Positions 7,646-12,146 of a stretch of 64,000 nt of DNA are shown piece after piece. A program made the translations under genes and the position numbers. The stretch is from a virus (lineage: Duplodnaviria; Heunggongvirae; Uroviricota; Caudoviricetes): the IMG/VR virus record IMGVR_UViG_3300032312_001770, positions 1 through 64,000 of that record; one strand, written 5' to 3'. The notes below the pieces were generated by a model that had not been told where the DNA came from, did not search any database, and saw only the letters and a list, made by a program, of their open reading frames with translations. The number at the start of each line of letters is the position of its first letter. Within the stretch, counting starts at the first letter, position 1.

Positions 7646-7858
7646 TTATCCACCATAAGCAGAAGTCACATAACCACCACGAATAATAAAGTTAATTCTA
7701 TTTTGTTTTACATCCATTGTAAGCATTTTAGATTGACCATCAACCTCAACAACTCTTACTTCGAATCCACCATCTTTAGCATATTGTGTTGCTTCTTCTA
7801 AAGTTTTACCTAAGTATTCTCTTTCGGTAATCATACCATTATCTCTTAAATAACTCAT
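7646..7858 (-). CDS. hypothetical small protein
   Basis: 70-aa ORF. Confidence 0.35.
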   Translation of the reverse strand: MSYLRDNGMITEREYLGKTLEEATQYAKDGGFEVRVVEVDGQSKMLTMDVKQNRINFIIRGGYVTSAYGG

Positions 7859-7957: not shown

Positions 7958-8842
7958 ATGATAGATTTAAATTATAAAATTGGCGCCGATGGTCAGAAAA
8001 CATTAAGTGCTACGGGTAGTACTATACAATCAGCTTCTATAACAACAAGTGGATTTCCTGTTCAAGTAACTATTACTGGTGACGCTGAACCAGCAAGTGG
8101 TGGATGGCATAAATTACAAATCTATAGAGATTCAACAGCGATTGGTCAGATTTTACAAATAGAATCAAACGGTACTGGTAAAAACATGCCAGTTGCTATG
8201 GTTACAATTGACACACCAGTGGCTGGAACATATACATATTCTGTAAAAATGGTTGGTAGTACTGGTATGTCTGTTACATATAGTGAAAATGGTGAGTTAT
8301 CTATGATTGTTGAAGAGAAAGTTATTAGTTCACATAACTCTTTAAATTGGTTAAGAAGAGATATTAATTCGCCGGTTACTTATTATGGATATTCACATGA
8401 TGTGAATGCTGATGATACTGATGACAACTGGGCTATTAAAAAAGTAACTGTTTCTGGAACTGTTGAAACTGTTAAGTGGACTAATGGTGAATATAATACA
8501 ATTTCTAAATGGAGTGAGCGAGTTGCTTCTTTTGCTACACCTGCAGGGTCTTTAGGTTTAACTTGTAGTAGTAGTGGTTCATCTTTAAATGTTAGTTGGA
8601 ATCAATTAACAGGAGTTGATAATTATCAAGTTATCATTTCATCGAATAATATAATATATTCTGATTTAGGAACTCAACTTTATAATAATAAAAATTTCAA
8701 TTCTAGTCAAATAACTAAAGTAGTAACAAACAGCGGAAGCTATGCTTATTATCATGCCTCCGCTGGTAATACCTATACTATTACTCTAAATGCTGTTAAT
8801 GTTGCAGGTGCATCATCATCAACAGTTACTATTACTGCTTAA
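7958..8842 (+). CDS. Ig/Fn3-like structural protein; paralog of the N-terminal domain of gene 63079..>64000
   Basis: Shared segments LQIYRDSTAIGQILQIES / TIDTPVAGTYTYSVKMV versus LQLYRNSTPIGKIIQAENS / FIDTPSAGNYSYSMRTV. Confidence 0.55.
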   Translation: MIDLNYKIGADGQKTLSATGSTIQSASITTSGFPVQVTITGDAEPASGGWHKLQIYRDSTAIGQILQIESNGTGKNMPVAMVTIDTPVAGTYTYSVKMVGSTGMSVTYSENGELSMIVEEKVISSHNSLNWLRRDINSPVTYYGYSHDVNADDTDDNWAIKKVTVSGTVETVKWTNGEYNTISKWSERVASFATPAGSLGLTCSSSGSSLNVSWNQLTGVDNYQVIISSNNIIYSDLGTQLYNNKNFNSSQITKVVTNSGSYAYYHASAGNTYTITLNAVNVAGASSSTVTITA

Positions 8843-9239
8843 TAACTTCTTTGATAGATTCAGAAACCATTTTCTTGTCTGCTGGAAGAGTTGCAAATTC
8901 TTTCATGATAGCACCAATTTGAGTGATACCGGAATTAACAAGTTCTGTTACTTTAGCAGTAACTTCTTCTTTAGACATTTGTGTTGGAAGGTAAACTTCA
9001 ATAACTGACAACTCTACTTTAGACTTTTCGTCATTAGTTATAGCAATAGTTTCTTTTAGAGACTTAACAGTTTTTGTGAGAATTTTAGTTACCTCAACAT
9101 CTGAAAGGTTATCAGTACCAACATTCTTTTCTACAGTTTGAATTTCTCCTTTAACAACAGATAGTATACTTTTTGCTACCATGTTCTTAGACTTAAATGC
9201 TGTCATAAAGTCTGTGTTGATTTTTTCTTTCAGTGTCAT
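8832..9239 (-). CDS. GatB/YqeY-domain protein
   Basis: Full-length similarity to the YqeY family (MTLKEKINTDFMTAFKSKN...LSDVEV...YLPTQMSKEEV...). Confidence 0.6.
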   Translation of the reverse strand: MTLKEKINTDFMTAFKSKNMVAKSILSVVKGEIQTVEKNVGTDNLSDVEVTKILTKTVKSLKETIAITNDEKSKVELSVIEVYLPTQMSKEEVTAKVTELVNSGITQIGAIMKEFATLPADKKMVSESIKEVIKQ

Positions 9240-9706
9240 ATTATTTTATTTACTTATTTACAAATTAAAAAAAGAAGATTGTTGGAACGTCTGCCAAGTA
9301 TGGTCGAAATCCGAGAACCTTACCTTGACTTTTAGTGACCTCATCACTTAGGATTACCTTTTAATATGCTTTCGCCTCGGTTGAGCAGTGTTACCATTCT
9401 GCTCGTTTTAATCTTCTTTGAGTTGGGTTTATTTTTCTAATATTTTGAGACATCTATCACCAACACAACTTTGATATCTACACCCTTACTATTATCATAG
9501 TATATTTTACAAGGTAGTTCACTGGGTTTAACAAGGGTGTTAACTTATTTAACAGCTACTTACTACCATAATTTCGTTAAAACTCACACTTACTCATTAT
9601 ATAATGTGAAATCTTTCGACCTGCTACTAACGTAGCTTTTGTTTTGACGACTCTTTGCTAATTCTTATACAAATATAGTGACAAAGTTTTAAATTGGCAA
9701 ATTATT

Positions 9707-9718
9707 TTTAATATATAC
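9707..9718 (+). promoter_or_regulatory. TTTAATATATAC promoter-like element 3 nt upstream of the ATG (one of at least 9 copies)
   Basis: Recurs at 7926, 9707, 19038, 36550, 53548 (+) and 29218, 59296, 61014 (-). Confidence 0.45.
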
Positions 9719-9721
9719 AGT

Positions 9722-11359
9722 ATGTCAAACATGAAATATCTAATGTTATTTGAAGCTTTTGAAGCTAATGCTTTGTCAAAAATGATGGCATTTTTGACAA
9801 AAAAGACTGATAGTAATTCTAAAGAAAGATTCCGTGATAAACTAAAAACATTAATTACTAGATTAGATATTCCTATTGATAAAATTAAAGATAATGATAT
9901 TAAATATCTTAATAGAGCTCAAGCTCTTAAATTAAGGAGTGAAAGGGAATCTGATTCTATATTTTGTTTGAAGTTTTGGTTTTCAATAGATGAAGGTTAT
10001 TTAGGTTTTACTGGTACAGGTAATTTAACAATGGACTTTAATGAATATATTAGTGGAACTAGAAAAAGAAGTTCATCAGATAAAAATTCACCATTTACCA
10101 CAAGAGAATTAAATCATATTAAAAATGATTTAGATATTAATATTAAAACAGGATCTTTAGAACCAGTTAAAAACTATGAAAATTTACAACATGGTCAATT
10201 AGTCATGGGTATATTTTCAGATGATGAAGATTTAGATAGATTAGGAATAGCTAAAATTTGGAGAGATGAAAACAATTTATTTGCTATTCAAAATGTTACT
10301 TCTGGTGGAGAGCCTGGGTCTCAGATTGATGGTGTATCTTGGAGAGAATGGGGATATAGATATTCTTGGTCACTAGACAGTGTTTACTCACCCGGATCAG
10401 ACCATTGTAAGTTACATATTTATACACCATCTGATAAACCTATTCATGTAGTAGGTAATAAAAAAGAAGTTGAAGAAGTAGAAGTTAAGAGTCTATTTGA
10501 CTTTAATTTACCAGTAGATAGATATTATAGTTTAACAGAATGGGGTGATACTTCTTGGTCCATAGATAGTTATAAATCTGTTGAAAAATCAGACTTTGCA
10601 ATTGTCTTAATGATAGATGATGTTGTTAAATCAGTTGGAACTAAAGTCAGTAATGTCAGAAAATCTAGGGAAGAATCAAAAGAAGGCGCTACAAGTTTGA
10701 TGAGTGACCATCAAATTAAAGAAGCTAATATTAAAAGATATTTAATGGGATTGGTTTCTAAAATGGGTATTGCATTAGATACATCAAATCTTCAAAATCT
10801 ACAAAAGATGGTTATAAAATCTACTTGTGATGAATTTGCTTTTATTTCTATTTATAAAGAAAGACCAGATTTTGATACTTTAAATCAAATATCAAAAGAC
10901 ATTTATAACATGATGGATGTTAAATCGGAATCTGATAAAAAATATTATTTAGAAAGAGCAATATCATACTATCAAAGTTTAAATAGTATTTCTAATGATT
11001 ATAAGAAAAATTATGTTGAATCTTTAAAAGTTATTAAAAATTTTGATAATGAGCAAGTTAAAGAATTCTTTGATATAGCAATAAAAATGGGCAATAAAAT
11101 AAAAAAGTATTTACTATCTCAAAATATTCAAAGTATTGAAGATTTAAGAATGATTATTATTAAATTAAGAACTATTAAAACTATTTCAAGAGAAAACGAG
11201 TTTAGCTTTAGTGGTTTTATTAAAAGTATTTTAGATGAATTCCACTATAAAAGTGAAGTAGAATGGCTTTGCGCAAATGGCTATGGTGATAGAGATATAT
11301 CTAAAGAACTTACTAGAATTAAACACTTAGAAAGATATGTTGATTCTTTATTGAGATAA
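9722..11359 (+). CDS. hypothetical protein (N-terminal MKYLMLFEAFEA motif)
   Basis: 545 aa; promoter-like TTTAATATATAC 3 nt upstream of the ATG. Confidence 0.5.
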   Translation: MSNMKYLMLFEAFEANALSKMMAFLTKKTDSNSKERFRDKLKTLITRLDIPIDKIKDNDIKYLNRAQALKLRSERESDSIFCLKFWFSIDEGYLGFTGTGNLTMDFNEYISGTRKRSSSDKNSPFTTRELNHIKNDLDINIKTGSLEPVKNYENLQHGQLVMGIFSDDEDLDRLGIAKIWRDENNLFAIQNVTSGGEPGSQIDGVSWREWGYRYSWSLDSVYSPGSDHCKLHIYTPSDKPIHVVGNKKEVEEVEVKSLFDFNLPVDRYYSLTEWGDTSWSIDSYKSVEKSDFAIVLMIDDVVKSVGTKVSNVRKSREESKEGATSLMSDHQIKEANIKRYLMGLVSKMGIALDTSNLQNLQKMVIKSTCDEFAFISIYKERPDFDTLNQISKDIYNMMDVKSESDKKYYLERAISYYQSLNSISNDYKKNYVESLKVIKNFDNEQVKEFFDIAIKMGNKIKKYLLSQNIQSIEDLRMIIIKLRTIKTISRENEFSFSGFIKSILDEFHYKSEVEWLCANGYGDRDISKELTRIKHLERYVDSLLR

Positions 11360-11710
11360 TAAATCTATTTCTTTTTTACGCTCATCAATTTCATATATCA
11401 AAGCAAGACAATCTCTTTTTAATTTTTTAAGTTCTTTAGCCTCGGTGATACTAACTTTTTTTAATTCAGTTTCAATTCCTTGAATTTCAGTTTGTATAGA
11501 TTTGCTTATTTTATTCAACTCTGATTTTATAGTAGATTGTATATCCGGTATTAGTGATTTATAATATGGATTATCATATATAATTTCTTTGTATTGATTT
11601 GGTTCAAATTTCTTTACCAACTCAACAAGGTGCTTGAGTATATCTTCCTCAGTTAGAGAACTTTTTAATTTAATTAACAAAGGATTAATATCTTGATTTT
11701 TACGAGTCAT
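11348..11710 (-). CDS. hypothetical coiled-coil protein
   Basis: 120 aa, Lys/Glu-rich. Confidence 0.4.
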   Translation of the reverse strand: MTRKNQDINPLLIKLKSSLTEEDILKHLVELVKKFEPNQYKEIIYDNPYYKSLIPDIQSTIKSELNKISKSIQTEIQGIETELKKVSITEAKELKKLKRDCLALIYEIDERKKEIDLLSQ

Positions 11711-11711
11711 T

Positions 11712-12146
11712 TTATACTACACGACGGATCTCTCGATCCATATCTCTTTTTTTAATTGTTTCTCTTTTATCGTATAACTTTTTACCTTTAACAACACCTA
11801 ATTTAACCTTAACTCTGTTATGTGCTGTAAATATTTCTAACGGAACCATAGTTGTTCCTTTATCTTGAAGTAATTTTTCAATTCTATCAATCTCTTTACG
11901 ATTAAGAAGTAATTTCTTATCTCTATTTTCATCATGTGGTTGGAATGCGTGACTTTGTGAATATCTAGCCACTTTCATATTCTTAATCCAAATCTCACCT
12001 TTTTGTATATAAGCAAAACAATCAGCAATAGTTACATTACCAGCTCTAATAGATTTAACCTCACTACCTAATAGCATTACACCTGCGTCGAAGTTCTCCA
12101 ACACAAAGTATTCATAATAAGCTTTTCTATTAGTTGTTATTTTCAT
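11712..12146 (-). CDS. smpB: SsrA-binding protein SmpB
   Basis: Clear SmpB signature: YFVLENFDAGVMLLGSEVKSIRAGNVTIADCFAYI...KLLLNRKEIDRI...GTTMVPLEIF...VKVKLGVVKGKKLYDKRETIKKRD. Confidence 0.85.
   Translation of the reverse strand: MKITTNRKAYYEYFVLENFDAGVMLLGSEVKSIRAGNVTIADCFAYIQKGEIWIKNMKVARYSQSHAFQPHDENRDKKLLLNRKEIDRIEKLLQDKGTTMVPLEIFTAHNRVKVKLGVVKGKKLYDKRETIKKRDMDREIRRVV

Follow-up and report, generated by a model that had tools for sequence, protein, structure and literature searches.

A modular, pseudoknot-rich minus-strand RNA between smpB and yqeY in huge phages

Closest described RNAs

The RNA described here resembles tmRNA (ssrA; RF00023 and the permuted alpha, beta, and cyano forms) in that several lineages have it directly 3' of smpB, on the smpB strand. 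It also shares the size range of 130 to 400 nt and a body of consecutive H-type pseudoknots whose number varies with the lineage, and it occurs in phage genomes that carry SmpB yet no recognizable tmRNA. Unlike tmRNA, it has no tRNA-like domain, tag frame, resume codon, or pairing of its ends, and it shows no sequence or covariance-model similarity.

A second point of comparison is given by T-box and other autoregulatory leaders, which likewise form the 5' untranslated part of the transcript of a tRNA-related protein and, like most copies of this RNA, end in a last helix followed by a U-run. Stem II and the IIA/B element of the T-box also combine an S-turn/loop-E motif with a pseudoknot. In contrast to T-box leaders, the RNA has no Rfam T-box match, specifier loop, T-box sequence, or antiterminator pairing. 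It differs from leaders in general in that its downstream gene is inconstant and parts of it stand alone with their own terminators.

The 6S RNA of Escherichia coli is a stable noncoding RNA that is cotranscribed with the protein gene immediately downstream, ygfA, and then processed out. It forms a long imperfect hairpin and not an array of pseudoknots, without structural or sequence similarity to the RNA described here. The 6S-ygfA arrangement shows that cis-regulation cannot be deduced from a 30-nt gap before the next ORF alone.

GOLLD and ROOL share with this RNA that they are phage encoded, large, rich in pseudoknots, located near tRNA or translation genes, and of no known function. The RNA is much smaller (∼400 nt or less), however, has a different architecture with no Rfam GOLLD/ROOL match, and is tied to smpB plus yqeY instead of tRNA arrays. 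The GOLLD and ROOL covariance models have no match in the region or in the window, which is the whole stretch of 64,000 nucleotides of phage DNA that was analyzed; a bona fide GOLLD elsewhere in the relative LR745206.1 (287 bits) serves as a positive control. Among the motifs named in the article text of Fremin (2023; PMC10690425), none is linked to smpB or yqeY. In the study of Al-Shayeb (2020; PMC7162821), tmRNAs were called with ARAGORN only.

The locus and its conservation

The region comprises positions 9240 to 9721 (482 nt), in which an ORF scan finds no ORF of at least 80 amino acids on either strand. As the sequence-only reading had pointed out for positions 9240 to 9720, the gap is real and of noteworthy length; it is the second-longest ORF-free stretch of the window, after the longer tRNA array (2602 to 4921). 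With a GC content of 0.312, and of 0.348 within the RNA itself, the region exceeds both other intergenic DNA (0.253) and the window as a whole (0.300), so that "relatively GC-rich" is a correct description with respect to other intergenic DNA. The region is a divergent intergenic spacer with conserved AT-rich boxes at 9666 to 9718.

This spacer is almost certainly the gene for a new, modular, and highly structured minus-strand RNA of ∼397 nt (∼9663 to 9267) that is found only in phages. About 90 homologues, which carry compensatory base changes, are found among contigs of viruses and metagenomes; they come from lakes, marine water, and activated sludge. DNA identity with one relative amounts to 80% in the region and 67% in the flanking yqeY coding DNA, and a conserved block of 310 nt lies downstream of the promoter. 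A structured noncoding RNA with a promoter had been anticipated by the sequence-only reading, and both are present; the features were read on the plus strand, however, and the RNA strand is the minus strand. As to the points on which that reading had made its case depend, the region is conserved in the homologues and holds no coding ORF in place of the RNA. Two of the checks that it proposed were also run: comparative alignment with related phages yields covarying helices across the homologues, and Rfam covariance models reveal no known family at the RNA, either at the gathering threshold or at an E value of ≤10.

The Rfam scan of positions 9100 to 9850 at an E value of ≤10 gives just two noise matches, both outside the RNA, and includes no covariance-model match to T-box, known riboswitches, RNase P, SRP, or 6S RNA. 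Candidate assignments to RNase P (AAAGUC and ACAGAA), T-box (UGGN in the P2 loop), hammerhead or K-turn (UGAUGAG), SRP, and 6S RNA were rejected, with no model match and the wrong topology. The RNA belongs to no catalogued RNA family. Among 185,579 bacterial and archaeal species genomes, the 3' pattern has 0 matches and the 5' pattern has 83, about the estimated chance level, none of which was confirmed by nhmmer; an origin from cellular genomes was rejected on this basis. The RNA is restricted to huge Bacteroidota-type phages.

The strand follows from a G·U pair in helix S1b that is present in 51 of 58 sequences, because such pairs would read C·A on the opposite strand. The minus-strand minimum free energy fold recovers most of the comparative helices. 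The single-sequence folding energy is not better than that of shuffled sequences (z = −0.9), and thermodynamic z-scores are uninformative for both strands. It is extremely improbable that the region lacks a functional RNA structure and instead represents an ordinary divergent promoter, another DNA-level element, or a short protein-coding gene. The divergent position, the AT-rich boxes, and the enrichment of promoter-like hexamers (9 found, 3.0 expected) fit a DNA-level element, but compensatory changes with strand-specific G·U pairs across ∼60 base pairs need RNA, and the conserved block is located beyond the promoter. A coding gene is opposed by the minus strand, which contains no ORF of at least 30 amino acids, and by a tiny AUG frame whose length is not conserved.

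The promoter scan shows a minus-strand TTGCCA-17-TATATT with 10 of 12 matches, which also fits the Bacteroidota −33 TTTG/−7 TAnnTTTG type. Diverse homologues have the conserved box AAACTTT..CTATATTTGTATAA ahead of the RNA, and from the sequence, we infer a transcription start at ∼9663. Three stacked motifs had been listed before the ATG at 9722, and all lie at the positions given for them (TATACAAATATAG at 9666 to 9678, AAATTGGCAAATT at 9691 to 9703, and TTTAATATATAC at 9707 to 9718). Those at 9666 and 9691 had been taken as plus-strand signals for this ATG; they are actually the −10/−7 and −35/−33 boxes of the minus strand.

Structure of the RNA

The features of the locus are compiled in Table 1.

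Table 1. Positions of genes, promoter, and RNA elements at the locus
Feature	Position	Strand	Description
smpB	11712..12146	-	PF01668, full length with C-terminal tail; 181 bits; conserved upstream neighbor
RNA promoter	9670..9700	-	TTGCCA 9700-9695, 17-nt spacer, TATATT/TATATTTG 9677-9670
Domain 1	9575..9651	-	Helix A GUCGUCAAAAC 9651-9641 / GUUUUAACG 9583-9575
PK-I pseudoknot	9481..9567	-	S1 (S1a + S1b) crossed by S2
PK-I S1a	9567-9562 / 9518-9513	-	GGUAGU / ACUACC
PK-I internal loop	9561-9557 / 9520-9519	-	AAGUA / GA; loop-E/sarcin-ricin-like
PK-I S1b	9556-9553 / 9524-9521	-	GCUG / CAGU
PK-I S2	9539-9533 / 9487-9481	-	CACCCUU / AAGGGUG; crosses S1
PK-II pseudoknot	9422..9479	-	S3 crosses S4
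PK-II S3	9479-9473 / 9454-9448	-	AGAUAUC / GAUGUCU; 87.6% paired; 7/7 pairs changed on both sides
PK-II S4	9464-9460 / 9426-9422	-	GUUGG / CCAAC; 91.3% paired
3' domain	9271..9419	-	Closed by P1: AAAGAAGAUU 9419-9410 / AAUCUUCUUU 9280-9271
P2	9404-9383	-	Invariant loop AAUGGUAACA, covarying stem
P3	9376-9368	-	GNRA-capped, variable
P4	9348-9334	-	
P5	9329-9324 / 9298-9293	-	GUCAAG / CUUGGC
P6	9319-9302	-	Loop holds PK-III strand
PK-III pseudoknot	9308..9355	-	AAUCC 9355-9351 / GGAUU 9312-9308 (P6 loop)
GUUCC	9284..9288	-	Invariant; possible partner GG(N)AAC in P2 loop, 9396-9391
U-run	9267..9273	-	Terminator-like RNA end; overlaps or directly follows P1 3' strand
yqeY	8832..9239	-	PF09424, tRNA-binding-domain protein; 58 bits; conserved downstream neighbor

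Helix A of domain 1 encloses three hairpins (9636 to 9623, 9621 to 9610, and 9609 to 9584). Its compensatory variants, noted by eye and without a formal count, are CAUUAAAAC/GUUUUAAUG, CGUUAAGAC/GUCUUAACG, and CAUUGAGAC/GUCUCAAUG. The architecture of this domain varies with the lineage, and simpler stems are found instead in L037, L081, and L016. The helices of PK-I are 97 to 100% paired, with many pairs changed on both sides, and the covariance model R1 scores 87 bits at PK-I of this locus. For the two 5' pseudoknots together, 94.5% pairing is observed, compared to 34 to 47% in slid controls, and 19 pairs (198 cells) are changed on both sides. This covariation in the aligned sequences supports PK-I and PK-II. 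The number of pseudoknots differs between lineages.

The 3' domain contains four hairpins and a third pseudoknot inside P1, a helix of 5 to 12 bp that is found in 78 of 78 copies with many sequence variants. Here, 99.2% of cells are paired, compared to 20 to 40% with the partners slid; 13 pairs are changed on both sides, and none of 500 shuffles reaches the observed values. PK-III is 100% paired, with the pair types UG/UA/GC/AU and CG/AU/UG and the variants AAGCC/GGCUU, AAACC/GGUUU, and AAUACU/AGUAUU, as well as AAGUC/GGCUU in independently found copies. Loop lengths led to the rejection of a small H-type knot (CCU/AGG) that would span P4.

Two elements of this domain had been given other roles on the plus strand. 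The segment GGTCGAAATCC, described as T-arm-like, does occur, at 9302 to 9312 and thus 19 nt away from the ∼9283 to 9293 assigned to it, but on the minus strand it reads GGAUUUCGACC, in which GGAUU is one strand of PK-III and has AAUCC, 40 nt upstream, as its partner. The hairpin GAGCAG-N10-CTGCTC is likewise present, at 9383 to 9404 with GTTTTAAT following at 9405 to 9412 (9383 to 9412 overall, in place of 9390 to 9420). It is not a plus-strand terminator but helix P2; the terminator scan is silent, and no plus-strand gene ends there. The P2 loop measures 10 nt, compared to the 3 to 8 nt of the intrinsic-terminator criterion, and is invariant in the minus-strand sense.

The strands GUUCC and GG(N)AAC are invariant in 75 of 75 sequences, including copies found without the DNA pattern. 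From these strands, between which there is no covariation, we infer a possible fourth pseudoknot. Together with the single-stranded, A-rich joiners AUUAAAAGG and CUAAAAGU, also invariant, GUUCC and GGUAAC suggest a precise tertiary core. Such a core, along with the intercistronic position in an operon-like array and a UGAUGAG in P4 that superficially resembles the hammerhead core, would fit a ribozyme or an RNase target that cuts the smpB-RNA-yqeY cotranscript into separately stable mRNAs, with the fold serving cleavage. This role is improbable: no Rfam ribozyme matches even at an E value of ≤10, nothing marks a cleavage site, and the UGAUGAG, part of a covarying hairpin, is not constant (UGGUAAG and UGAUUAG).

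The modules of the RNA also occur separately, the 3' domain alone in LR756502 and L046 and PK-I alone in L114 and L132. In view of this, the notion of one RNA with one function may be too simple.

Relationship to tmRNA

The proximity of smpB had made tmRNA an obvious candidate in the sequence-only reading, a proposal that the search for tmRNA features does not bear out. ARAGORN finds no tmRNA and no T-arm in the region in the standard, permuted, or relaxed (-ps80) mode, and the Rfam tmRNA models RF00023, RF01849-51, and RF02544 are silent there at an E value of ≤10. The canonical phage tmRNAs of L156 (171.7 bits) and L172, used as positive controls, are both detected, and nhmmer shows no similarity between them and the RNA.

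The ends of the RNA do not pair, and there is no terminal helix with a G3·U70 pair that could serve as an acceptor stem. P1, the only long-range closing helix, is internal in the long forms; it shows no positionally fixed G·U pair, and what comes after it is a U-run and not NCCA. GGAUUUCGACC resembles a D-loop analogue of the GGAUUCGAC type but sits in the P6 loop, where it pairs via GGAUU, and on its 5' side lies a segment whose length differs by up to 30 nt. CCA is not a required element: the base after GUUCC is A in most copies and C in L001, L002, and L049, and GUUCC continues with UCUUU in L010 and with UCUCC in L035. Inspection of all frames by hand across the homologues reveals no conserved tag ORF or resume codon. 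The apparent stops UAAGUAG and AAUAA are structural and belong to the loop-E motif and to a pseudoknot loop between covarying stems; a short AUG-GUA-GUA frame shifts in length and register among the homologues, and the AU-rich loops vary in length. Placing tmRNA parts by hand gave P1 or P5 as the acceptor stem, GGUUCUCGGAUUUCGACC as the T-arm, GUUCCA as the site of CCA, and, with every frame considered, the tags ADVPTIFFF*, (A)NEIMVVSSC*, and VAVK*; all were rejected, since in the homologues these segments either show helical covariation or differ in length and register. A separate acceptor piece among the tRNAs was rejected as well; three long Rfam tRNA matches are insert-containing tRNAs with normal arms and no G3·U70.

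A highly derived but functional tmRNA would be a processed RNA that, alone or with a separate acceptor piece, is aminoacylated and carries out trans-translation with the phage SmpB. It could account for the slot directly 3' of smpB that ssrA also takes, for the serial H-type pseudoknots and tmRNA-like size, and for a complete relative genome without a recognizable tmRNA. It is nonetheless very unlikely, since every defining feature tested fails (acceptor helix with G3·U70, T-arm, CCA, and open frame), L010 and L035 are devoid of CCA, ARAGORN and all Rfam tmRNA models are silent, similarity to the L156 and L172 tmRNAs is missing in nhmmer, and the long tRNAs of the array are ordinary. Membership in the tmRNAs is rejected, and a functional analogy alone is possible.

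Gene neighborhood

The order smpB, RNA, yqeY on one strand is found with smpB in 17 of 21 loci, where it lies within 3.7 kb upstream, and with yqeY in 65 of 74 loci. The group forms a translation-gene island in which an aminoacyl-tRNA synthetase or IF-3 gene may come after yqeY on the same strand. The RNA directly adjoins smpB in L010, L023, L049, L092, and L132, and in at least six lineages overall; in several lineages, it starts right after the smpB stop codon. Forms that consist of PK-I only and have their own terminators are located 2 nt after the smpB stop in L132 and after smpB and one ORF in L137 and L146. In canonical phage loci, ssrA occupies the same slot 3' of smpB. YqeY-type domains bind tRNA (PMC1865053 and PMC2811023).

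The complete relative genome LR745206.1 (635 kb) carries one smpB, one copy of the RNA, and 59 tRNAs, with no tmRNA detected by ARAGORN or any Rfam tmRNA model. A universal companion of phage smpB was rejected: of 50 other phage smpB loci, just L114, L132, L137, and L146 give a PK-I match with R1, and both this RNA and a tmRNA are missing from Lak phage. Most of the other loci likewise show neither within 3 kb, which indicates that smpB does not need the RNA. The phage SmpB looks canonical.

Proposed function

The RNA looks like a new translation-linked phage RNA. Its gene neighborhood tentatively suggests, at somewhat less than even confidence, a stable RNA that acts in trans as a partner of the phage tRNA-binding proteins. 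The RNA would be transcribed at the head of the yqeY unit or, where adjacent, together with smpB, and it would be freed by termination at P1 and the U-run or by processing. It could then accumulate as a compact, nuclease-resistant species that serves SmpB, YqeY, or both as a scaffold or partner and thereby modulates the rescue of ribosomes or the handling of tRNA during infection of the Bacteroidota host. In this way, it may fill the niche of tmRNA (beside smpB, as a string of pseudoknots, in tmRNA-less genomes) without tRNA-like or mRNA-like domains.

The main rival of this trans model is a cis-acting 5' leader or attenuator of the yqeY-led unit, which is possible but rather unlikely. P1 and the U-run would terminate transcription or mask initiation ∼30 nt downstream, and the signal that stabilizes or disrupts the 3' domain would be translation related (autoregulation by YqeY or SmpB, a tRNA, or a small molecule). 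A codirectional gene always follows closely. The yqeY ATG (9239) lies ∼30 nt past the RNA end at this locus, which is also the median distance from P1 to yqeY, and a promoter box fits in just 4 of 66 of these spacers. Because the spacer leaves no room for a promoter, most phages have the RNA as the physical 5' portion of the mRNA that continues downstream, a position that counts against a trans role insofar as it fits a cis-acting leader equally well. Where yqeY is lost, the next gene takes up the same spacing of 30 to 45 nt, and LR756502 has the 3' domain alone, with the same promoter, ahead of yqeY. The bacterial yqeY is part of a leader-regulated rpsU-yqeY unit (PMC13374519).

Against a leader, ∼400 nt with at least three pseudoknots far exceeds known protein-binding leaders, and no conserved alternative (antiterminator) pairing is seen. 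The downstream gene varies between yqeY, an ORF of 67 to 70 amino acids, methyltransferase-like inserts, and IF-3, the last located 210 to 250 nt downstream with its own promoter box. The PK-I/PK-II forms of L137, L146, and L132 end in ordinary terminators with no gene to regulate. A dedicated yqeY riboswitch is weakened by the persistence of the RNA where yqeY is lost or displaced (L010, L023, L026, L092, L013, L062, and L079), and this independence from yqeY also speaks for the trans role. The U-run bears on both models: a run of at least four U residues follows P1 in 50 of 78 copies (64%), as a leader would have it, but 36% of copies are without one, and a clear U-run in just 64% also speaks against the trans role. 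A canonical-looking phage SmpB could, moreover, simply use the host tmRNA.

A more specific form of the trans model, which is unlikely on present grounds, has the RNA as the natural partner of phage SmpB in place of tmRNA, in a pseudoknot-only rescue or hijack ribonucleoprotein with no tRNA-like domain and no tag. Such a particle would free or capture stalled host ribosomes without tagging or would sequester SmpB and YqeY from host tmRNA and tRNAs. SmpB might dock on the irregular, loop-E-like helix of PK-I, which would replace the irregular helix 2a of the tRNA-like domain of tmRNA. If true, this would be a new mode of SmpB function and a new route for the takeover of translation by huge phages.

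Significance

Large complements of translation genes are a feature of huge phages. An abundant, well-folded family of ∼90 copies, absent from cellular genomes, sits between two tRNA-binding proteins at the very position of tmRNA in bacteria and some phages, and annotation with ARAGORN and Rfam alone misses this conserved RNA gene. The RNA is a compact addition to the short list of ornate phage RNAs, and with its covariation-supported pseudoknots and its loop-E module, it lends itself well to structural work. It provides a testable handle on the role of phage SmpB when a phage tmRNA is absent.

Structure of the RNA

Positions 9240-9721 of the window (482 nt) separate a yqeY-like gene from a divergently oriented ORF of 545 aa. 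The sequence-only reading described this gap as long, ORF free, and relatively GC rich, and these properties hold: with an ORF cutoff of 80 aa, it is the second-longest ORF-free stretch in the window after the tRNA array, and its GC content is 31% (35% in the RNA itself), compared to 25% in other intergenic DNA. The structured RNA and the promoter proposed for the gap are also borne out, by covarying helices and by a conserved promoter upstream of a minus-strand RNA. The plus-strand orientation of that proposal is reversed. In 51 of 58 sequences, one pair within the pseudoknots PK-I and PK-II is G.U; read from the opposite strand it would become C.A, which fixes the strand of the RNA. All motifs listed earlier are present, apart from a misplaced position of GGTCGAAATCC, which lies at 9302-9312 and not at about 9283-9293. 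This supposed T-arm is the opposite-strand reading of GGAUU in the loop of helix P6, a strand of pseudoknot PK-III, and the supposed terminator hairpin is helix P2, whose loop AAUGGUAACA is invariant. TATACAAATATAG and AAATTGGCAAATT are promoter elements as suggested, but those of the minus-strand RNA read on the other strand.

Features of the RNA locus in the window (helices written for the minus strand)
Feature	Position	Strand	Description
smpB	11712-12146	minus	PF01668, 181 bits
120-aa ORF	11348-11710	minus	directly after smpB
545-aa ORF	9722-11359	plus	no Pfam family
Promoter	TTGCCA 9700-9695, 17-nt spacer, TATATTTG 9677-9670	minus	conserved; sigma-70 pattern match
Domain 1	9651-9575	minus	leader helix around three hairpins
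PK-I	9567-9481	minus	H-type pseudoknot
PK-II	9479-9422	minus	second H-type pseudoknot
3' domain	9419-9271	minus	closed by P1
yqeY-like gene	8832-9239	minus	PF09424
67- to 72-aa ORF	7646-7858	minus	weak PASTA and potato-inhibitor-I matches only

The promoter boxes also fit the Bacteroidota -33/-7 pattern, and their position would place the transcription start near 9663. In domain 1, covariation is seen by eye, and the architecture varies among lineages. Its hairpin 1, read on the opposite strand, is the sole terminator-like site called by a scan of the region (9623-9645 plus, GCTACTAACGTAGC followed by TTTTGTTTTG). This site could stop transcription bidirectionally, from the yqeY side; no plus-strand gene precedes it.

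In the first stem of PK-I, pairing is broken by a conserved internal loop (AAGUA/GA) of the loop-E/sarcin-ricin type, and the hairpin loop CACCCUU pairs with a downstream AAGGGUG. In a MAFFT alignment of 62 sequences, the 29 pairs of PK-I and PK-II are 94.5% paired, compared to 34 to 47% in controls with pairing partners slid along the alignment. Changes on both sides occur in 19 pairs (198 cells), and the observed values are attained in no more than 2 of 500 shuffles.

Within the 3' domain, P1 is present in 78 of 78 copies in many sequence versions and encloses P2, a variable P3, P4, and P5, which in turn encloses P6. The GGAUU of the 10-nt P6 loop pairs with AAUCC 40 nt upstream to form PK-III, with the compensatory variants AAGCC/GGCUU, AAACC/GGUUU, AAUACU/AGUAUU, and AAGUC/GGCUU. 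The 31 pairs of this domain are 99.2% paired in 78 sequences, compared to 20 to 40% in slid controls, with P6, GUUCC, and some of the 3' strand of PK-III imposed by the search pattern used to collect the copies. Thirteen pairs are changed on both sides, and none of 500 shuffles reaches the observed values. GUUCC and GGUAAC are kept in independently found copies; a GG(N)AAC/GUUCC pairing, which shows no covariation, is conceivable. The folding energy of the single sequence is not better than that of shuffles (z = -0.9 for the minus strand and -0.5 for the plus strand), and the minus-strand minimum free energy fold recovers most of the comparative helices. A plain DNA-level or coding explanation of the region is exceedingly improbable.

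Distribution and gene neighborhood

The window belongs to an AT-rich huge-phage genome whose closest database relatives are the uncultured phages LR745206.1 (635 kb) and LR756502.1 (642 kb). Genomes of >634 kb group within the Mahaphage clade, with Bacteroidetes as predicted hosts (PMC7162821). Between LR745206.1 and the window, the noncoding block 9236-9586 is 80% identical, compared to 67% for the adjacent yqeY coding DNA.

Pattern scans returned matches in 9 viral contigs and at 80 metagenome loci, from which 88 distinct 3'-domain cores were extracted and 86 kept, a GC-rich chance match and a chimera being set aside. Additional copies outside the search pattern (L103 to L106) were reached independently via smpB. 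Among 185,579 bacterial and archaeal species (one genome each), the 3' pattern has no match, and a looser 5' pattern has 83, about the estimated chance level, none extending past the pattern. This limits the family to phage and metagenome sequences. Contig titles that name a source give only marine and activated-sludge metagenomes.

When each locus is read in the direction of the RNA, 17 of the 21 loci with enough upstream sequence have smpB no more than 3.7 kb upstream in the same orientation, and in 65 of 74 a yqeY of that orientation starts at most 300 nt downstream. In loci L010, L023, L049, and L092, the RNA begins exactly at the smpB end. In the window, the 120-aa ORF and the oppositely oriented 545-aa ORF separate the two. 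The latter keeps this position in most family members (29 to 88% identity) and appears to have been inserted into what was ancestrally a smpB-RNA-yqeY unit. TTTAATATATAC (9707-9721 plus), conserved in LR745206.1, ends only 3 nt before ATG 9722, and the mRNA of the 545-aa gene may therefore be leaderless or nearly so, or the gene may start at the downstream ATG 9731.

Other neighbors are translation genes: IF-3 (L010), a class II aminoacyl-tRNA synthetase (L001), and tRNA arrays. IF-3 (PF05198 and PF00707) lies behind the RNA in L010 (9835-10380 plus) and L023, and the synthetase, of the Asp/Asn/Lys type, follows yqeY in LR745206.1 (L001:1539-2903 minus). The 67- to 72-aa ORF (also in L002, 2759-2977 minus, L026, L092, and L079) is conserved in the RNA-yqeY transcription unit, usually just after yqeY or, where yqeY is missing, directly behind the RNA.

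Shorter relatives consist of PK-I and an ordinary terminator, starting 2 nt past the smpB stop (L132, 3446-3575) or lying immediately ahead of yqeY (L114, 5596-5760), or of PK-I, PK-II, and a terminator (L137, 3957-4230, and L146). The terminators of L132, L114, and L137 are classical GC-rich hairpins. LR756502 and L046 carry the 3' domain without PK-I. Since the modules occur separately across lineages, the RNA is modular, and the short forms with PK-I or PK-I and PK-II may be ancestral. A PK-I covariance model finds nothing in 50 other phage smpB loci beyond L114, L132, L137, and L146, and a Lak phage smpB locus contains neither this RNA nor tmRNA; the link to smpB is clade specific.

Relationship to tmRNA and other RNAs

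ARAGORN finds ten tRNAs and no tmRNA in the window, and none in the gap region at relaxed thresholds. Rfam 15 at the gathering score returns only tRNAs for the window, and scanning 9100-9850 with a permissive threshold (E ≤ 10) gives two noise matches, both outside the element. The RNA belongs to no known family. Literature searches found no description of it, although PMC10690425 may include it as one of its unnamed candidates.

Three unusually long tRNA-like genes called by Rfam (112 to 141 nt; 3104-3231, 3298-3438, and 3451-3562, all minus) are missed by ARAGORN unless introns are permitted; with that setting, 3451-3562 is called as tRNA-Thr(AGU) with a 22-nt intron. The acceptor, D, and T arms of the three genes are normal, but inserts of 40 to 70 nt sit within or close to the anticodon arm, an oddity in an array of phage tRNAs. 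Four tandem tRNA-Lys genes (one CUU and three UUU) lie at 3568-3924 minus; three of these measure 84 to 88 nt and have additional variable-region nucleotides.

tmRNA, suggested by the sequence-only reading, is the closest analogy, with a smpB-adjacent slot, H-type pseudoknots strung together in variable number, and a similar size. Canonical viral smpB loci have a normal tmRNA ∼30 nt past smpB (L156 group) or nearby (L172). Membership is rejected, as every testable defining feature fails: an acceptor stem with G3.U70, a T-arm, CCA, a tag ORF, and recognition by tmRNA models. The complete LR745206.1 genome has one smpB, one copy of the RNA, 59 tRNAs, and one GOLLD RNA, and no tmRNA is found in its 634,780 bp by ARAGORN (default and relaxed) or any Rfam model. 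A derived yet functional tmRNA is quite unlikely. GOLLD and ROOL are nearest in kind, as ornate phage RNAs of unassigned function near translation genes, but their models do not match and their architecture differs. The bona fide GOLLD RNA of LR745206.1 (RF02032, 287 bits, L272:24875-25280, ∼420,875-421,280) lies beside tRNA genes; additional matches in this genome are a DUF805b motif (L264:17639-17673) and, at the borderline, a tRNA-Sec-like sequence (L270:47031-47115, 47.4 bits with a cutoff of 47). T-box-type leaders likewise have an S-turn and a pseudoknot and lie in the 5' UTR, but their diagnostic sequences are missing here.

Possible function

YqeY-type domains are tRNA-affinity modules (PMC1865053, PMC2811023), and Francisella yqeY sits in a leader-regulated rpsU-yqeY unit (PMC13374519); each of these observations is compatible with a trans-acting RNA as well as with a cis-acting leader. 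A leader or attenuator, the possible but second-ranked reading, agrees with the median P1-to-yqeY ATG distance of 30 nt and with a promoter box fitting in only 4 of 66 P1-yqeY spacers, so that transcription of yqeY must pass through the RNA; a U-run of at least 4 follows P1 in 50 of 78 copies. A dedicated leader is less compatible with other observations: the RNA persists where yqeY is deleted or displaced and other genes fill its position, the PK-I and PK-II forms finish in ordinary terminators, and the RNA is larger and more complex than known protein-binding leaders. A stable RNA acting in trans is therefore ranked first, tentatively; it would be a partner of phage tRNA-binding proteins. 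A processing or ribozyme element is improbable, and some other explanation takes up the remaining weight. In huge phages, the RNA forms a new family that is modular, rich in pseudoknots, and linked to smpB and yqeY.
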